The position numbers were made by a program, and so were the translations under genes. 47,637 nt of DNA from Nitrospinota bacterium. Its GTDB lineage: Bacteria > JADFOP01. Location: assembly GCA_022562795.1 (NCBI GenBank), contig JADFOP010000013.1:1-47637 (forward strand), written 5' to 3'. The notes beneath the pieces are model-generated. The model was not told the DNA's origin. It ran no database searches and worked only from the letters and a program-made list of their open reading frames with translations. Shown one piece after another: positions 15,697 through 43,006 of the stretch (its first letter is position 1; every line of letters starts with the position of its first letter).

Positions 15697-16284
15697 ATGG
15701 AAGAGCGACCCGTCGGTGTGATTGCCCTCGCGGCCGTTTCCCTGGGTCTTTTCGCCACCTTCCTCGTCCCCTTCAACACGGACTTCAAGTACTCTCTCGT
15801 ATCCGGGTCTTCTAAGGGCTCCCCGGGGCTCATGGCCCAACCATCCCTGCTGACGTCGTGGCTCTATCCCCTGCTCGATACGGCCAAGATGCTCCATGAC
15901 GACCTCCAGATGCCGGTCGACCTGGCCCTTGAGACGGCCGCCAGCATCCACCGCCACACGCAAGCCACCCGCATCGCTCCCGAGCTGGTGGTGGCCCTCA
16001 TCCAGGTGGAAAGCGGCGGCGACCCAAGAGCGGTGAGCCCCAAGCAGGCCGTCGGGCTCATGCAGGTCCGCCATTCCGTGTGGGCCCAAACCCTTGGCGT
16101 CTCCTACAGGGAGCTCTTCGACATCGACACGAACATCCGGGCAGGCATCTACATCCTCAATTACTACCTGAAGCGCCACGAGACCATGACCGCCGCCCTG
16201 GCGGCTTACAGCGGCAATACCCGCTCCACGCGCTACCCCAAAAAGGTCTTGGCGACCTTCCGCGAGCTCGCCAGCGAGACTTAG
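15697..16284 (+). CDS. Membrane-anchored lytic transglycosylase (SLT domain)
   Basis: N-terminal TM; ALIQVES (catalytic Glu), AVGLMQV, NIRAG..L, ALAAY. Confidence 0.9.
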   Translation: MEERPVGVIALAAVSLGLFATFLVPFNTDFKYSLVSGSSKGSPGLMAQPSLLTSWLYPLLDTAKMLHDDLQMPVDLALETAASIHRHTQATRIAPELVVALIQVESGGDPRAVSPKQAVGLMQVRHSVWAQTLGVSYRELFDIDTNIRAGIYILNYYLKRHETMTAALAAYSGNTRSTRYPKKVLATFRELASET

Positions 16285-16434
16285 CCTCAAGCAGCGATGG
16301 GGTGAGTTGCCGCTCTCACGCAATCACCCGGTCTGGTTGAATTAGAATGTATTTTAGCTCGGTGGGGTCTAACGTACTGAAATAGCAGGCGGGAAAAATT
16401 ATTCGGAAAATCACGGAAAAAAAGAGAAAAAGGC

Positions 16435-16463
16435 TTGACAACCCAAGATGTAGTGGTTATTAT
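16435..16463 (+). promoter_or_regulatory. sigma70 promoter (plus strand) with no ORF directly downstream
   Basis: TTGACA-17-TATTAT with an A-tract UP element upstream. Confidence 0.7.
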
Positions 16464-16488
16464 ATATAGAGAATACAACATACTGTGG
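16441..16488. promoter_or_regulatory. Tandem NrdR-like boxes (16441-16456, 16473-16488)
   Basis: acCCAAGATGTAGtgg and atACAACATACTGtgg compared with consensus acaCwAtATaTwGtgt; starts 32 bp apart. Confidence 0.55.
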
Positions 16489-16582
16489 CAGGGGACTCCC
16501 TCCATCATCCAACCGAAGAAGGTGCGCTTAAAGAAGGTTGAACTCCCACCCCCTGCCACAGTATTCATTTGACCGAGGGCAA
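16470..16582. ncRNA. Putative small structured RNA, possibly transcribed from both strands
   Basis: 15-bp perfect inverted repeat at 16480-16494/16550-16564 with an inner CAACC/GGTTG stem, bracketed by convergent promoters. Confidence 0.5.
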
Positions 16583-16588
16583 TTCCCA

Positions 16589-16616
16589 ATTATACCCAGC
16601 CTGGTCGCCCTGTCAA
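16589..16616 (-). promoter_or_regulatory. sigma70 promoter (minus strand), convergent with the 16435 promoter
   Basis: Exact TTGACA-16-TATAAT on the minus strand. Confidence 0.7.
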
Positions 16617-16681
16617 GGGTTTTTTCCACCGCTTCTCCACATCTTCTCGCCATTAATCATTAATCGTTCTTTTTCCACGCC

Positions 16682-16710
16682 TTGTAGATGCGCCGAGCCG
16701 GTGGTATAAC
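16682..16710 (+). promoter_or_regulatory. sigma70 promoter of the methyltransferase gene
   Basis: TTGTAG-17-TATAAC with a TG extended -10. Confidence 0.55.
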
Positions 16711-16752
16711 CCCCTTCAAGCGCCCCGCCTACTTTCTGGAGGAACACACCCG

Positions 16753-17739
16753 ATGGCCGCTCTTGAGACGTGGGACGACCTCTCCGAGCTCAGCAGGGGC
16801 TTCATGGCCGCCAGGATTATCATTGCGGCCGCTGAGCTGGAAATTTTCGACCACCTTGAGGATGAAGGGGCGACGGCCGAGGAGGTGGCCGCAAGCTTCG
16901 GAGGTACGGATCGGGCCTACGTCATCGTCTTGAACGCCCTGGCTGCTCTCGGGGTAATCGAGAAACAGGACGGCCGCTACCGTAACACCCCTCTCACCCA
17001 GCGCCACCTAGTCACCACGAGCCCCCAGTACCGTGGCGACGGCCTGCGGATCCACAGCAACCTGTGGGATAGCTGGACCGGGCTCGAATCAATCCTTCGC
17101 GGCGAACCTTATGAAGCCCCCAAAATCATGGACGACCCGGAGCGGAATCGCCGTTTCACCCGGGCCATGCACGCCTACCACTTCGACGAGGCCGGCGAAA
17201 TCGCTCCCCTGCTCGGGCTGGAGCGAGCCACCTCAATGCTCGACCTGGGGGGCGGCGCGGCCAGCTACTCCATCGCATTCTGCCAGGCCTCCCCCTCTCT
17301 AAAGGCCGTGCTCATAGATCGGGCCCAGACCCTTGAGACGGCCAGTGAGTACGTGGAAGAGCACGGCATGAGCGAGCGGATTACGCTTCGGGGCGGCGAT
17401 TTTTACGAAGATGAGGCCTTTGACCTGGGCGGTCCATACGACTTCGTCTTCATCTCCAACGTTCTCCACATCGAGGACGAGGGGCGTAACCTCGCCCTTC
17501 TCGGCAGGGCCTTCGAGGCCACAACGCCCGGAGGCCGCATCGTCATCAACGAGGTCCCAATCAAGGAGAGTGGCGTTGAACCACTTTGGGGCGCAATCTT
17601 CGCCGTCAATATGCTGGTAGCCACCGACCGGGGCGACAGCTATCCCCAGTCCACCATGGGCTCTTGGCTCAAGGCCGCGGGCTGCACCCGCGTGGACTTC
17701 CTCACCGAGGCTCTCACCATCGGCCACAAGGGGCAGTAA
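16753..17739 (+). CDS. SAM-dependent O-methyltransferase (Methyltransf_2 with dimerisation domain)
   Basis: AAAELEIFD dimerisation motif, MLDLGGG, GDF, SNVLH, PGGRIVINE. Confidence 0.9.
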   Translation: MAALETWDDLSELSRGFMAARIIIAAAELEIFDHLEDEGATAEEVAASFGGTDRAYVIVLNALAALGVIEKQDGRYRNTPLTQRHLVTTSPQYRGDGLRIHSNLWDSWTGLESILRGEPYEAPKIMDDPERNRRFTRAMHAYHFDEAGEIAPLLGLERATSMLDLGGGAASYSIAFCQASPSLKAVLIDRAQTLETASEYVEEHGMSERITLRGGDFYEDEAFDLGGPYDFVFISNVLHIEDEGRNLALLGRAFEATTPGGRIVINEVPIKESGVEPLWGAIFAVNMLVATDRGDSYPQSTMGSWLKAAGCTRVDFLTEALTIGHKGQ

Positions 17740-30058: not shown

Positions 30059-30149
30059 CTATTTCGAAAAGGGCAAACTATCCGAAAGGGTAGGGCGCAA
30101 AGTCACCGGCCCTCGGCGTAGCGCCAGGGAAGCGGGACCGCCGAAATAG
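30059..30149 (+). ncRNA. c-di-GMP-I (GEMM-I) riboswitch aptamer
   Basis: P1 CTATTTCG/CGAAATAG; GGGCAAAC-TATCC-GAAA-GGGTA-GGGCGCAAAG; P3 ending AGCGGGACCGCCG; matches the Vc2-type consensus. Confidence 0.88.
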
Positions 30150-30671: not shown

Positions 30672-33600
30672 TTAGTGGGCGTGGGCGGAAGCCTGCTCCA
30701 GGTTGAGCGAGACGACTCTGCTTACGCCTTCCTCCTCCATGGTCACGCCGCAGAGAACCTCACCTTGGACCATGGTCTGCTTGTTGTGTGTGATGACGAT
30801 GAATTGGGTCTCGGCGGCGCGTTCCTTCAGAAGGTTGGTGAAGCGCTGAATGTTGGCGTCGTCCAGTGTGGCGTCGACTTCGTCGAGGAGGCAAAAGGGC
30901 GCGGGCTTGACCAGGAACATGGCGAAGAGCAAAGCCAAGGCCGTTAGAGCCCTTTCCCCGGCCGAAAGTAGGGTGATGGAGCCGAGCCGCTTGCCCGGCG
31001 GCTGCACGGATACCTCTACGCCGGCCTCTAGGATGTCATCGTCAGTCAGCACGAGCATGGCTGAGCCGCCCTCGAAGAGTCGGGCGAAGACCTCCTGGAA
31101 GCGGGTGTTGACCGCCTCAAAGGTCTCACGAAGCATGCGGCGGGTGGTGCGGTCGACTTTCTCGATTACCTTGGTTAAGTCGGCGATGGAGCGCTCCAGG
31201 TCTGTCTTCTGGGCTGCGAGGAAGGCGTGGCGAGCCTCCACTTCCTCAAACTCCTCCAGGGCCTCAAGGTTGACCCCGCCGAGGTTTCTGAGCCGGTTCC
31301 TGAGGGCTTCGGCCTTACGGCGGCGCTCCTCAAGGGGCGGGCCTTCAGGGTCGTGGTAGGCCACGAGGGCCGGCGAAACCAGCCGCCAATCCCGGCGTAG
31401 CCGCTCCTCAATATGTGCGATTTCCACCCGGACCTCCGCTTGGGCCACCTCTATTGGGCCCATCCGGTCCTTTGCTTCATCCAAGCGGTCCCGGCTTCGC
31501 CCGATTGCTTCCTCCGCGGCCAAGGCCACACGTTGGTGGGAGACGAGCTTCTCCTCAACTGCACGGAGACGATCCGTGAGTCCGGCCCTCTTCTTGAAGT
31601 GCTCTTGTAGCTCGGCCTCGAGGGCTTCCAGGGAATGGCCGACGGCAGCCTCTCGTTTGGCCGCCTCCACGCGGCGGCTCTCCAGGTCAGCGAGACGGGC
31701 CGACAGATCCTCGGAGCGTTGGACAGCAGCGGTTTGCTCTGCCCGGTGGGCGTCTCGCTCACCCCGAAGTCGGGTGACTGTTAGGGACTGCTCGTGGACC
31801 GCCTGCCTTGCTTCCTCCCAGGAGGAGGCGGCCTCCGCCAGAGCCTTCTCGGCCTCTGCGATGAGGCCCTCCTGCTTAAGCCTGTCGGATTCGGCTTCGT
31901 TGCGGAGGTCAGCCAACCTGGCCTGATCGGCATCGATGGCCTCCAGGTCGACCTCCAGGCGGGAGGCCTCGGCCGCTGCGACTTCCAACGACCGAGCGAT
32001 ACGCTCTCTCTCCAGGGCCAGGTGTTCCAGGGTCTTATCAACCTCCACGAGCCGTTTGTCCAGCTCGGCGATACGTCGATTGAGGAGCTCTCGGTCGCCC
32101 TCGAGGGTCTGGCGCTGATGAAGGAGCCGAGCCAACTCCTCCTCCATTGGGGCGAGCCGCTCCTGGAGGTCCACCACCTCGTCGCTCAACTGGCGCACAA
32201 GCCGCCGCTTCTTCAGCAACTCCAGGTGTCCGCTGTTGGCGGAGCCGCCAATGATCAGTCCGTTAGGCTCCATGACGATGCCGTCGAGGGTGACGAGGGT
32301 TACGCTGCGGCCGTTGTTACGCCACACATCGAGGGCCGTGTCCAAGTCCTCCACGAGCCAGACCCCGCCGAGCAGATGTCGGATGACAGGGCGGAACTCC
32401 TCTCGGCACGAAACCACCTCCATGGCGGGCCCGATGAGGCCCGGCGAGGGAGGCAGCGCCTTGGGAGGCCCGTTTCCTTCGAGACTGAGGGGAATAAAGG
32501 CGCTACGGCCAGCGGAGTCGTCCCTGAGTCGCTCGATGGCGACCCGGGCGTCGGAATGGGTCTCCACTACGAGGCTCTGGACCCGCTCGCCTAGGGCCGC
32601 CTCTATCGCAACCTCGTATGACGGGGGGCATTCGATGAGCTCCGCCACCACACCTCGAATGCCCGCCAGCTCAGCCGACTCCTCGCGGCGTTCCATGAGA
32701 TAGCGGACCCCCTCTCTGTATCCCTCGAAAGAGCGGTGAATCGCCTCTAGGCTGCTCAGTAGCGATCTTCTCTCCGTCAGGGTTTCTCGTAGAGTGGAGA
32801 TCTTTTCCTCGACGGAGTGGATGGCCTCAGCCGTACGGGTCATTTCGTTCACGCACGTCGCCCTTTGGCGGAGGGCCTCTTCGTGGTCCTCACCCGTCTT
32901 CCGGCGGGCAGCCGTGTGGGTCCGATGCGATGTCTCTATTTGCTCGGCGCTCTCCCGGTCGGCCTCGGAGCCTCCTTCAAGCTGCTCCCGGCGCACTTCG
33001 AGGGCCTTGCGCCGTGCCTCTAGGGCGGTGGCCTCGTTGGAGAGAGAGCTTTCGGCCCGCATCTGCTCCAGGAATATCGCTTTTGCTGGCTCTTGAGCCG
33101 CCTGGGCCTCCTGGAGCAGCTCAGAGGCCGCGGCCGCCTCCGCATCACGTGATTCGTGAAGAGCCCAAGCCGCCTCGTAGGACTCCTCGAGCTCTCGACC
33201 ACGCCCCTCCAGAGATCTCATGCGTTCCGCCTCCTGCGTGACCGCGCCCCGGAGGCGCTCGAGTTCCTTGTCGGTAGCTTCCCCCTCCTTGGAGAGCTTT
33301 TCCCTCTCGTCCCGCAGGATGCCCACTCGGTGTTCGGCCCGATCGATGGCACCCTCACACTCCAGGAGCTCCTGGCGGCGGGCCGCAACGGCCCTCTCCT
33401 TGGTCACCCCGTCGAGACGGAGGCCCTCCAGGTCCCCCTCTCGCGCGGCAACATCCGCGGCGTGACCTTCCAGCTCGGCCCGGCGTCGTTCGGCCTCGCC
33501 GGCTAAGGATTCGGTACGGGCCTGGGCGGCGAAGAATTCTCCGGCCAGGATGGTGAGCTCCACGCCCCGCAGCTCACGGCTCAGGTCCTTATAGCGGCGG

Positions 33601-34247
33601 GCCCTCTGGGCTTGCCGCCGGGGCCGCTCCACCTGACGACGCAGCTCCTCTACGAGGTCGCCCACGCGCTCCAGGTTGTCGCTGGCCGCATCGAGCCTGC
33701 GTTGAGCGATAGCCCGCTTGTGCTTGTACTTCATCACGCCTGCGGCCTGCTCGATGAGGAGTCTGCGGTCTTCGGGTTTGGCGCTTACGATGGAGGCCAC
33801 CCGGTCCTGCTCGATGACGGCGAAGGCGTTGGTGGCCAGACCCGATTCGAGAAATAGCTCCACAATGTCCTTGAGACGGCAGGGGGACCCGTTGAGTCGG
33901 TACTCGCTGGTCCCATCACGGTAGAGACGGCGGGAGACCTTCACCTCGTCAAAGGCCGCGTAGGGGGAATCACCGAGGGTTGAGGCCGCATCCTCGAGAA
34001 CCAGAGAAACCTCGGCCATTCCGATCGGCGCCCGGGTGGCCGAGCCGTTGAATATGAGGTCTTCCATACGGCGGCCCCGCAGGAGCTTGGCGCTCTGCTC
34101 GCCTAACACCCAGCGAATAGCATCGGAGATGTTGCTCTTTCCGCAACCGTTGGGGCCGACAATGACGGTGATACCCGGCTCGAAGGTGAGGAGGGTGGGC
34201 TCGACGAATGACTTAAAGCCGACCAGCTCGATGGATTTGAGGTACAT
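30672..34247 (-). CDS. smc: Chromosome segregation protein SMC
   Basis: GFKSF, GPNGCGKSN, hinge domain, LSAGE, LLDEVDA; GGAG RBS before ATG 34247. Confidence 0.97.
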   Translation of the reverse strand: MYLKSIELVGFKSFVEPTLLTFEPGITVIVGPNGCGKSNISDAIRWVLGEQSAKLLRGRRMEDLIFNGSATRAPIGMAEVSLVLEDAASTLGDSPYAAFDEVKVSRRLYRDGTSEYRLNGSPCRLKDIVELFLESGLATNAFAVIEQDRVASIVSAKPEDRRLLIEQAAGVMKYKHKRAIAQRRLDAASDNLERVGDLVEELRRQVERPRRQAQRARRYKDLSRELRGVELTILAGEFFAAQARTESLAGEAERRRAELEGHAADVAAREGDLEGLRLDGVTKERAVAARRQELLECEGAIDRAEHRVGILRDEREKLSKEGEATDKELERLRGAVTQEAERMRSLEGRGRELEESYEAAWALHESRDAEAAAASELLQEAQAAQEPAKAIFLEQMRAESSLSNEATALEARRKALEVRREQLEGGSEADRESAEQIETSHRTHTAARRKTGEDHEEALRQRATCVNEMTRTAEAIHSVEEKISTLRETLTERRSLLSSLEAIHRSFEGYREGVRYLMERREESAELAGIRGVVAELIECPPSYEVAIEAALGERVQSLVVETHSDARVAIERLRDDSAGRSAFIPLSLEGNGPPKALPPSPGLIGPAMEVVSCREEFRPVIRHLLGGVWLVEDLDTALDVWRNNGRSVTLVTLDGIVMEPNGLIIGGSANSGHLELLKKRRLVRQLSDEVVDLQERLAPMEEELARLLHQRQTLEGDRELLNRRIAELDKRLVEVDKTLEHLALERERIARSLEVAAAEASRLEVDLEAIDADQARLADLRNEAESDRLKQEGLIAEAEKALAEAASSWEEARQAVHEQSLTVTRLRGERDAHRAEQTAAVQRSEDLSARLADLESRRVEAAKREAAVGHSLEALEAELQEHFKKRAGLTDRLRAVEEKLVSHQRVALAAEEAIGRSRDRLDEAKDRMGPIEVAQAEVRVEIAHIEERLRRDWRLVSPALVAYHDPEGPPLEERRRKAEALRNRLRNLGGVNLEALEEFEEVEARHAFLAAQKTDLERSIADLTKVIEKVDRTTRRMLRETFEAVNTRFQEVFARLFEGGSAMLVLTDDDILEAGVEVSVQPPGKRLGSITLLSAGERALTALALLFAMFLVKPAPFCLLDEVDATLDDANIQRFTNLLKERAAETQFIVITHNKQTMVQGEVLCGVTMEEEGVSRVVSLNLEQASAHAH

Positions 34248-34286
34248 CACTTTCTCCATCCGAACCGGCAGGCGCGCTTATCAGAT

Positions 34287-34322: not shown

Positions 34323-34369
34323 ATACAATACTTTGTGCCGATTCTCCGCTCGGCGTCAAGATGTTGTGT
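34323..34369. promoter_or_regulatory. Tandem NrdR-like boxes upstream of smc
   Basis: atACAATACTTTGtgc and cgtCAAGATGTTGtgt; starts 31 bp apart. Confidence 0.5.
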
Positions 34370-35840: not shown

Positions 35841-36011
35841 ATTCATAAGGGCCCGCCATACTCCCTCCTAAGGAGGAAGGGAGAAAGCCCCCCCATTTAA
35901 GTGTTCATTACATGAACACCATTGTTTTTTAAAGAGTGTTCGGTGATAGGTGGCCACCGTACATGGCCTGTGGGACTATAGCAAATGTTGGGGCTTAAGG
36001 TCTCGCGGAAG

Positions 36012-36719
36012 CTATATATTGGGTCTCGTACTTTCTAGCCGCTTCAGTGCCTGTCGGGCGGCGGCCTGTTCGGCATCCTTTTTGCTCTTTCCGGTGCCTC
36101 GGCCTAATAATCCCTTGGAATCAAACACCTCGATCTCAAAAGTCTTTTGGTGGTCGGGGCCCCGTTGAGCGACAACTGTATAGTTCGGCAGGCCCTGACT
36201 CGTCTCCTGACACCACTCCTGGAGGAGGCTTTTGAAGTCGGTCGTAGGTACCGCCGAAGCCACATCCTCTAGGACATCTGCGAAAAGGTCCAACAGAATG
36301 GACCGAGTCCTGTCGTATCCCGCCTCCAGGTAGAGGGCCGCCGCCAGAGCCTCGTAAGCGCCGGCTAGGAGCGAGGGTTTGTCCCTACCTCCTGTAAGCT
36401 CCTCCCCGCGGCCGAGCCGCAGGTGGTCTCCCAGGCCGAGGAGTCGGGCCCGGTTGGCCAGGGCCGCCTCGTTGACTAAGTGGGATCGTCGCTTGGAGAG
36501 CACTCCCTCAGGGGCGTTGGGAAGCGTTTGGACGAAGTGCTCCGAGATGACGAGGTCGATGACCGCGTCGCCGAGGAATTCGAGCCGCTCGTTGTGCGAT
36601 GTGGGCTCGGGCTGCTCGTGGGCGAAGGAGGTGTGGGTCAGGGCCTGCTCCAGGAGGTCCTTGTCGGCAAAGTTATAGCCGATTCGTTCCTCCAGGGAGG
36701 CCAGAGGTGGGCGAGGCAT
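36012..36719 (-). CDS. rnc: Ribonuclease III
   Basis: NERLEFLGDAV; dsRBD KSLLQE...GPDH.K.F...G.GKSKKDAEQ.AA. Confidence 0.97.
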   Translation of the reverse strand: MPRPPLASLEERIGYNFADKDLLEQALTHTSFAHEQPEPTSHNERLEFLGDAVIDLVISEHFVQTLPNAPEGVLSKRRSHLVNEAALANRARLLGLGDHLRLGRGEELTGGRDKPSLLAGAYEALAAALYLEAGYDRTRSILLDLFADVLEDVASAVPTTDFKSLLQEWCQETSQGLPNYTVVAQRGPDHQKTFEIEVFDSKGLLGRGTGKSKKDAEQAAARQALKRLESTRPNI

Positions 36720-42977: not shown

Positions 42978-43006
42978 ATTATACCGGCTGCCCTACCGCT
43001 TGTCAA
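42978..43006 (-). promoter_or_regulatory. sigma70 promoter of the yceD-rpmF-plsX-fab operon
   Basis: Exact TTGACA-17-TATAAT. Confidence 0.75.

Follow-up and report, generated by a model that had tools for sequence, protein, structure and literature searches.

A conserved hairpin locus with convergent promoters and predicted NrdR boxes in a Nitrospinota bacterium: a candidate sense/antisense small RNA pair

Results

Genomic setting and features of the locus

We analyzed a 47,637-nt contig (hereafter the window) from the genome of an uncultured, marine-sediment member of the Nitrospinota, G000, whose 84 contigs sum to 2.15 Mb at 97% completeness. The genomes used for comparison included G001, the only other genome of the same genus (a sister species), and G002, the only other genome of the same class. 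The locus is present as a single copy in G000 and is bordered by a gene encoding an SLT-domain protein (15697-16284, +) and an O-methyltransferase gene (16753-17739, +). An earlier sequence-only reading had described the first gene as pointing at the locus and the second as the next gene along, and both neighbors were found as claimed. It had also given the methyltransferase gene its own promoter at 16682; this site fell below the threshold of our promoter scan, with about 3/6 and 5/6 matches by eye. The RNase III gene of the genome is located within the window as well (36012-36719). Contigs assembled from three RNA or possibly-RNA libraries (X18, X19, and X20) covered the neighboring genes in part and left 16390-17424 without coverage, which is uninformative either way. 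The features of the locus are as follows.

16355..16618, no strand: repeated unit, approximate extent (left edge approximate, taken by offset from G001)
16391..16430, +: A-tract-rich stretch upstream of the + promoter (a U-rich run when read on the - strand)
16415..16444, -: weak mirror-image stem-loop over the -35 of the + promoter, trailed by U-rich sequence; the - RNA may have its distal end here, from the fold
16435..16463, +: promoter, TTGACA 16435-16440, 17 nt, TATTAT 16458-16463 (scan 11/12; predicted start ~16470)
16441..16456, no strand: NrdR box 1, 6/6 key positions; fills the promoter spacer directly after the -35
16473..16488, no strand: NrdR box 2, 5/6 key positions (C at position 11); covers the predicted start and extends into the 5' hairpin arm
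16480..16564, +: long hairpin with a 15-bp outer stem (16480-16494 / 16550-16564) and an inner one (16510-16514 / 16536-16540)
16565..16574, +: T-rich tail just past the hairpin, where the + RNA may have its proximal end (TTCATTT in G000, weaker)
16589..16616, -: promoter, TTGACA 16616-16611, 16 nt, TATAAT 16594-16589 (scan 12/12; predicted start ~16582)
16607..16626, +: 5-bp stem-loop followed by T6, terminator-like, for a longer + RNA of ~157 nt; overlaps the -35 of the - promoter

The A-rich tracts at 16391-16430 are kept in position in the G001 copies of the locus. This stretch, directly upstream of the + promoter, contains a degenerate version of a dispersed repeat whose period is 10 bp and which consists of two to three or more units like CGGAAAATCG, often preceded by TATT. 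A regular-expression search found 40 arrays on 30 contigs of G000 (for example C54:20592-20650, C60:20335-20402, and C7:75560-75628), and several arrays (on C57, C17, C66, C33, and C43) are followed by a shared segment of ~70 nt.

On the other side, between the element and the methyltransferase gene, three DnaA-box-like 9-mers (8/9 each, all on the + strand) are located within 58 bp (16622-16679). Only three clusters of this kind occur genome-wide, from 666 single boxes, and the G001 contig C674 retains two of the three 9-mers. A replication origin at the locus was rejected: no GC-skew turn was found there, and dnaA is located on another contig (C30). Elsewhere in the window, a c-di-GMP-I-GGC riboswitch aptamer was identified at 30063-30146 (+), with 64.9 bits against a gathering score of 59.

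Two promoters face each other across the hairpin

The sequence-only reading had reported two perfect promoters converging across ~110 nt. Their coordinates held, and the - promoter does match the sigma-70 consensus at 12/12 positions; the + promoter matches at 11/12 and is not perfect. Between 15500 and 17500 there are three promoter-like sites, compared with 0.5 +/- 0.8 in 50 shuffles. Across G000, 105 sites match the consensus at 11/12 or more positions, 11 of them perfectly, compared with 6-11 sites (0-1 perfect) in 10 local shuffles. Since such sites are ~10 times commoner in the genome than in shuffled sequence, both promoters of the locus are probably real; most consensus sites in G000 would be genuine promoters, and an accidental perfect site appears very unlikely. 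Three more perfect sites are located in the window, at 43006, 21526, and 12341 (all -), so that 4 of the genome's 11 perfect sites lie on one contig.

Convergent arrangements are rare in this genome. Among 344 sites matching at 10/12 or more positions in G000, only three convergent pairs have starts 30-300 bp apart, and the pair at the locus (11 and 12 matches, 110 bp) is both the closest and the best. The second-best, on C42 at 79982 (+) and 80210 (-), matches at 11/12 and 10/12 with 228 bp between the starts.

We then compared the promoters across copies of the locus. The -35 of the + promoter is identical in 5/5 aligned copies, and its -10 reads TATCTT in the three G001 copies. The -35 of the - promoter is identical in all four copies covering it; its -10 reads TATAAT, TATAAT, TAGAAT, and TAGAGT in these, keeping T1, A2, and T6 in surroundings that are otherwise ~60% identical (hand count). 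The spacers of 17 and 16 nt and the retention in relatives of both hexamers of each promoter are consistent with sigma-70 promoters.

The + promoter carries a predicted pair of NrdR boxes

In its passages on the operator, PMC13584703 defines the NrdR site as two partially palindromic 16-bp boxes separated by a linker of 15-16 bp, and names C4, A6, A8, T9, T11, and G13 as highly conserved box positions on the basis of a mutational study. The boxes at the + promoter are separated by 16 bp and together match 11/12 key positions. Box 2 is invariant across all aligned copies, a conservation that is confounded with that of the hairpin stem it overlaps.

G000 encodes NrdR itself (TIGR00244, 196.4 bits against a cut-off of 124.65; C56:9477-9917). 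Two genes for the large subunit of ribonucleotide reductase (RNR) were found, on contigs C64 and C4, and no class III RNR was found in this 97% complete genome. The C64 RNR promoter consists of TTGACA, box 1 immediately after it, the -10 within the 16-bp linker, and box 2 placed 32 bp on; its boxes also score 6/6 and 5/6, in the same register as at the + promoter of the window. The two NrdR-like boxes that had been read over the + promoter and its start are thus in agreement with both the published definition and the genome's own RNR layout. The C4 region with the second RNR gene (C4:1-2400) looks much more GC-rich by eye, with no NrdR box visible upstream, and this contig may be foreign or mis-binned.

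We estimated how often such pairs arise by chance. In G000, 10 box pairs match at least 11/12 key positions, compared with 4.4 +/- 1.9 in 30 local shuffles; as ~4.4 of the 10 are expected by chance, key positions alone leave roughly even odds for each site. When sites were ranked with a full 16-nt consensus, six box pairs reached at least 22/32, the RNR promoter being first (25) and the locus second (24). The box pair of the locus adjoins neither an RNR operon nor nrdR. Taken together, the predicted NrdR control of the + promoter is well supported computationally.

The region between the promoters is predicted to form a long hairpin

The 15-bp inverted repeat is perfect, with 55 nt between its arms. 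In the predicted fold of the + RNA, CAACC and GGTTG pair as the inner stem, and two C-rich 9-mers (16495-16503 and 16542-16550), which read ACUCCC(U/A)CC on the + RNA, are left unpaired. The fold and the repeat scan therefore recovered the repeat, the inner stem, and the unpaired C-rich stretches that had been noted from the letters. The + RNA folds at -50.2 kcal/mol (z -2.8), with equally good folds in 3/200 shuffles, and the - RNA folds at -49.4 kcal/mol (z -1.8; 8/200), with its G-rich motifs paired.

Candidate RNA ends were found on both sides. In G001, a run of seven T begins at the last base of the hairpin arm, where G000 has the weaker T-rich tail. The distal stem and T6 (16607-16626) are present in G000 and in L028, a metagenome contig described below, and are lost in the G001 copies. 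The locus is mirror-symmetric in G000 and L028, such that each -35 together with its A-tract forms a 5-bp stem and a U-run on the other strand; the right-hand mirror stem and U-run is the one lost in G001. An imperfect inverted repeat of 14 nt (86%), denoted I4, is found at the ends of the locus.

The stems contain 20 base pairs, of which 19 are invariant among the copies, one is changed on one side (CG to UG), and none is changed on both sides, which is too little variation for covariation. In C674, where this single change replaces C by T, the + RNA still has a U-G pair at the position; the - RNA would have an A-C mismatch there, giving a single hint in favor of the + strand. Support for the predicted fold comes from thermodynamics (the z of -2.8) and from this one wobble change.

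Copies in a sister species identify a conserved unit in different contexts

We searched for further copies by BLAST. G001 holds the locus at three places, two of the copies being complete, and L028, a metagenome contig of 1120 bp, carries a copy with 95% identity. The aligned full copies number four, from two species and one metagenome contig. No copy was found in the same-class genome or in 38 others of the 41 genomes searched, which gave only short chance matches, and a covariance model (R1) run over three genomes of the GTDB phylum matched only in G000 and G001. A scan with a two-motif pattern returned 15 metagenome and 13 genome stretches, and BLAST confirmed 3/28, namely L028 and two G001 contigs.

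Conservation was found to be uneven within the unit. Over the 93 columns of the core, which begins just past the + start and closes with the hairpin, the G000 copy shows 1, 4, and 3 differences to the three other copies. Between G000 and the G001 copies the core thus differs at 3-4/93 columns, compared with 74-75% DNA identity in the flanking genes, and 9-10 of the 16 aligned columns that follow the core differ in the G001 copies. Such unevenness inside a single unit speaks for purifying selection acting on the hairpin and against a recent transfer. The hairpin is therefore conserved in G001 and L028, as the sequence-only reading had asked of relatives; covariation, for which it had proposed an analysis, was not found (0/20 pairs changed on both sides, 19 invariant).

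Over 264 nt, the two complete copies in G001 are 91.7% identical, and they diverge exactly after the -35 of the - promoter. The G001 copies have three different left contexts: one follows a VWA gene, one (on C674) is located between a different upstream gene and the methyltransferase gene, and one is on C44. The neighbors of the C44 copy are all on the - strand: pdxA and a 133-aa ORF at one end, and a TPR gene at the opposite end. With no + strand gene downstream, the + promoter in C44 has no protein gene to serve, and the - promoter likewise has no - strand gene downstream in G000 or C674. These contexts suggest that the hairpin unit occurs independently of neighboring genes.

The contexts bear on whether the region is instead an NrdR-controlled leader or attenuator of the O-methyltransferase gene, with the hairpin and T-run acting as a conditional terminator. 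The gene is on the same strand, ~280 nt from the predicted start, in both G000 and C674, and the scan found no strong separate promoter for it. This explanation is improbable, with the C44 copy lacking a + strand gene downstream, no evident alternative antiterminator pairing, no riboswitch match, and a perfect opposing promoter inside the would-be leader.

A second question is whether the element acts as DNA, for example as a decoy or titration site for NrdR, as a hotspot of recombination or rearrangement, or as a small mobile repeat that carries promoters. It is multi-copy in G001, where contigs are interrupted at it, its ends carry the inverted repeat I4, and the DnaA-box-like cluster adjoins it. 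The DNA run X3 covers the locus fully; its contigs stop at the hairpin and include an alternative flank like that of G001. Nevertheless, G000 has a single copy, no transposase or integrase gene is found among the immediate neighbors, and the concentration of conservation in the hairpin speaks against recent transfer. The left edge of the repeated unit lies ~80 bp outside I4, so that I4 is not terminal. We consider a role as DNA rather unlikely, if slightly less so than the leader. The sequence-only reading had named a MITE as an outcome that would overturn it, and the copy numbers (one in G000, three in G001) and the internal position of I4 do not fit a MITE.

The locus is unlikely to encode a protein

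A type I toxin-antitoxin or small-protein locus would combine one strand that codes for a short peptide with an antisense RNA from the opposite strand. Convergent promoters, fully overlapping transcripts, and several copies per genome resemble such loci, and G000 has ORFs of 45 aa (+) and 100 aa (-). However, a 2-nt indel in the apical loop shifts the frames between the two species; the + strand ORFs use different frames in G000 and G001 and are unrelated (E = 1.3), and the - strand ORFs have in common only the 33 residues encoded by the conserved core, with different starts and ends. There is no conserved ORF on either strand, and by reading we found no start codon with a properly spaced ribosome-binding site. 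A coding function was rejected on the indel and the ORF comparisons, and a toxin-antitoxin or small-protein locus is very improbable.

The Rfam scan gave no match at gathering threshold at the locus; the best matches had E values of about 7 and scores of 11-20 bits against cut-offs of 43-73. This agrees with the earlier statement that the locus is not 6S, SRP, tmRNA, or a riboswitch. Overall, this conserved and lineage-restricted locus probably represents a new non-coding RNA under NrdR control, for which an antisense partner is also probable.

A proposed NrdR-gated pair of opposing RNAs

Building on the features seen in the sequence, on how they are conserved, and on the agreement of the boxes with the published NrdR site, we infer transcription, RNA ends, antagonism, and targets as follows. 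The + promoter is built like an RNR promoter, with box 1 in the spacer, the -10 in the 16-bp linker, and box 2 over the start; given this layout, NrdR with dATP and ATP should shut it. High dNTP levels would silence the + promoter, and a fall in dNTPs would open it together with RNR. The + RNA would extend from ~16470 to the T-rich tail (~100 nt), or to ~16626 if read through, and would form one long hairpin displaying the two unpaired ACUCCC(U/A)CC motifs. The - promoter would yield a fully complementary RNA from ~16582 leftwards. The two RNAs may act against one another: RNA polymerases would collide within the 110-bp overlap, and the transcripts would form a duplex that RNase III cleaves. 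NrdR would set which strand prevails, so that the two are mutually exclusive. In trans, the C-rich loops of the + RNA would then pair with ribosome-binding sites that are G-rich and of the type GGAGGGAG. Pairing between the two RNAs does not by itself account for loops that are as conserved as the stems, which points to a third partner.

We give even odds (about 0.5) to the composite reading of these features, namely a self-contained non-coding RNA locus of ~260 bp in which an NrdR-gated small RNA has a convergent antisense partner. It is possible, though doubtful, that the role extends further: NrdR, beyond RNR, would gate this sense/antisense pair and pass the dATP/ATP signal to post-transcriptional control, with a fall in dNTPs leading the C-rich RNA to neutralize a constitutive antisense RNA and to damp mRNAs matching GGAGGGAG. 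Against the main reading, an RNA gene would be an unusual target for NrdR. NrdR is described as specific to RNR genes, often together with its own gene; PMC12051234 questions topA, a target claimed outside the RNR genes, on the ground that only one box is present there.

The functional RNA may also come from the + strand alone, as an NrdR-repressed, trans-acting small RNA, with the - site silent, or dampening or terminating + transcription while yielding no RNA itself. The strand hints (the U-G wobble, the seven-T run of G001, and the NrdR operator) all favor the + strand, the region with the - promoter evolves much faster than the core, and the - RNA fold is less exceptional (z -1.8). We find this unlikely, because a chance - site is hard to reconcile with 11 perfect sites in the genome against 0-1 in shuffles, its -35 is identical in 4/4 copies and its -10 keeps T1, A2, and T6, and the duplicated G001 unit ends exactly at the - promoter's -35.

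Targets and protein partners

To characterize the proposed trans-acting role of the NrdR-gated + RNA, we analyzed possible pairing sites in G000. An exact 9-mer complement of loop 1 precedes 10 ORFs of at least 80 aa, and an 8-mer complement precedes 41, which is generic. Duplex scans with crude gene calls, of the loops against 5155 putative start regions and of the hairpin interior against 2463 start regions, found no outlier apart from the locus itself, the scores being continuous in both. The RNR genes ranked 74th and 149th of 2463. The proposed action on Shine-Dalgarno regions thus has no standout target in these scans.

The sequence-only reading had offered a protein sponge as another role. 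Neither CsrA nor Hfq was found in the 97% complete genome, and this suggestion gained no support. A CsrA/Rsm sponge RNA was rejected, as there is no CsrA match and the G-rich motifs are paired in the - RNA fold. Dependence on Hfq was rejected as well, since Hfq was not found in G000.

Relation to known systems

The + promoter resembles the NrdR operators at RNR promoters of Streptomyces coelicolor, E. coli, Listeria, and Streptococcus in its two 16-bp boxes, linker, key positions, and promoter overlap. It differs in that the predicted site drives neither an RNR gene nor any protein gene. Sites of this kind are also found at the RNR promoter and the nrdR operon of G000.

In function, the SdsR/RyeA pair comes nearest, with two opposite-strand small RNAs at one locus. 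In its account of this E. coli pair, PMC6610125 describes mutually cis-encoded small RNAs on opposite strands that are reciprocally regulated, one counteracting the other, and the relevant passage of PMC3333887 describes SdsR as dependent on RpoS. The regulator at our locus is predicted to be NrdR rather than RpoS, the overlap is a single long palindromic hairpin, and no Hfq was found in G000; the likeness drawn here is one of function.

Two other families share parts of the design. RsaE/RoxS of Firmicutes are trans-acting small RNAs with C-rich loops that pair with Shine-Dalgarno regions. The locus is similar in having unpaired C-rich motifs on a structured RNA and transcription predicted to be gated by a metabolic repressor, and it differs in having no Rfam match and in placing the motifs in internal loops of one long hairpin. 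In type I toxin-antitoxin loci such as Sib/Ibs, the convergent transcripts overlap over their full length. The locus shares with them the facing promoters, the complete overlap, and, in G001, the presence of more than one copy; a conserved ORF is lacking here.

If transcribed as predicted, the locus would be the first small-RNA arm found of the NrdR regulon; in a full-text literature search, an NrdR-controlled small RNA was not described among the matches listed. The arrangement would also be a compact, symmetrical convergent design in which each -35 and A-tract doubles as the other strand's stem and U-run. If the reading is true, the locus would couple DNA-precursor sensing to post-transcriptional regulation, and would provide an RNA toggle that responds to the nucleotide pool, in a phylum from marine sediment that has barely been sampled.

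NrdR box pairs elsewhere in the lineage

The exact 12/12 box pattern occurs six times in G001 and five times in G002, compared with 0 and 0 for a backward control. In G000, perfect pairs were identified at C56:11771, upstream of rpiB-glyA-nrdR; at C11:41377, upstream of an operon with a ribokinase-like gene (named from its N-terminus); and at C24:289, next to a TTGACA aimed at a contig-end ORF whose N-terminus resembles a DNA methyltransferase (by reading). The sites at rpiB-glyA-nrdR and at the ribokinase-like operon are biologically plausible. Perfect pairs at non-RNR genes suggest an NrdR regulon wider than RNR. The scans suggest that box pairs of this lineage precede several non-RNR operons, which bears on the view of strict RNR-specificity.

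The window contains two further pairs with 11/12 matches. One, with a 15-bp linker, is intergenic at 34323-34369, upstream of an SMC gene (32526-34259, -); the other, at 35978, coincides in part with the end of the RNase III gene and could be a chance match. In G002, L063:1440-1600 and L067:1440-1600 share a block of ~140 nt, after which the sequences diverge. Within the shared block, a perfect box pair adjoins an opposite-strand promoter (TTGACA-18-TATATT); one of the two loci has no same-strand gene past the boxes.
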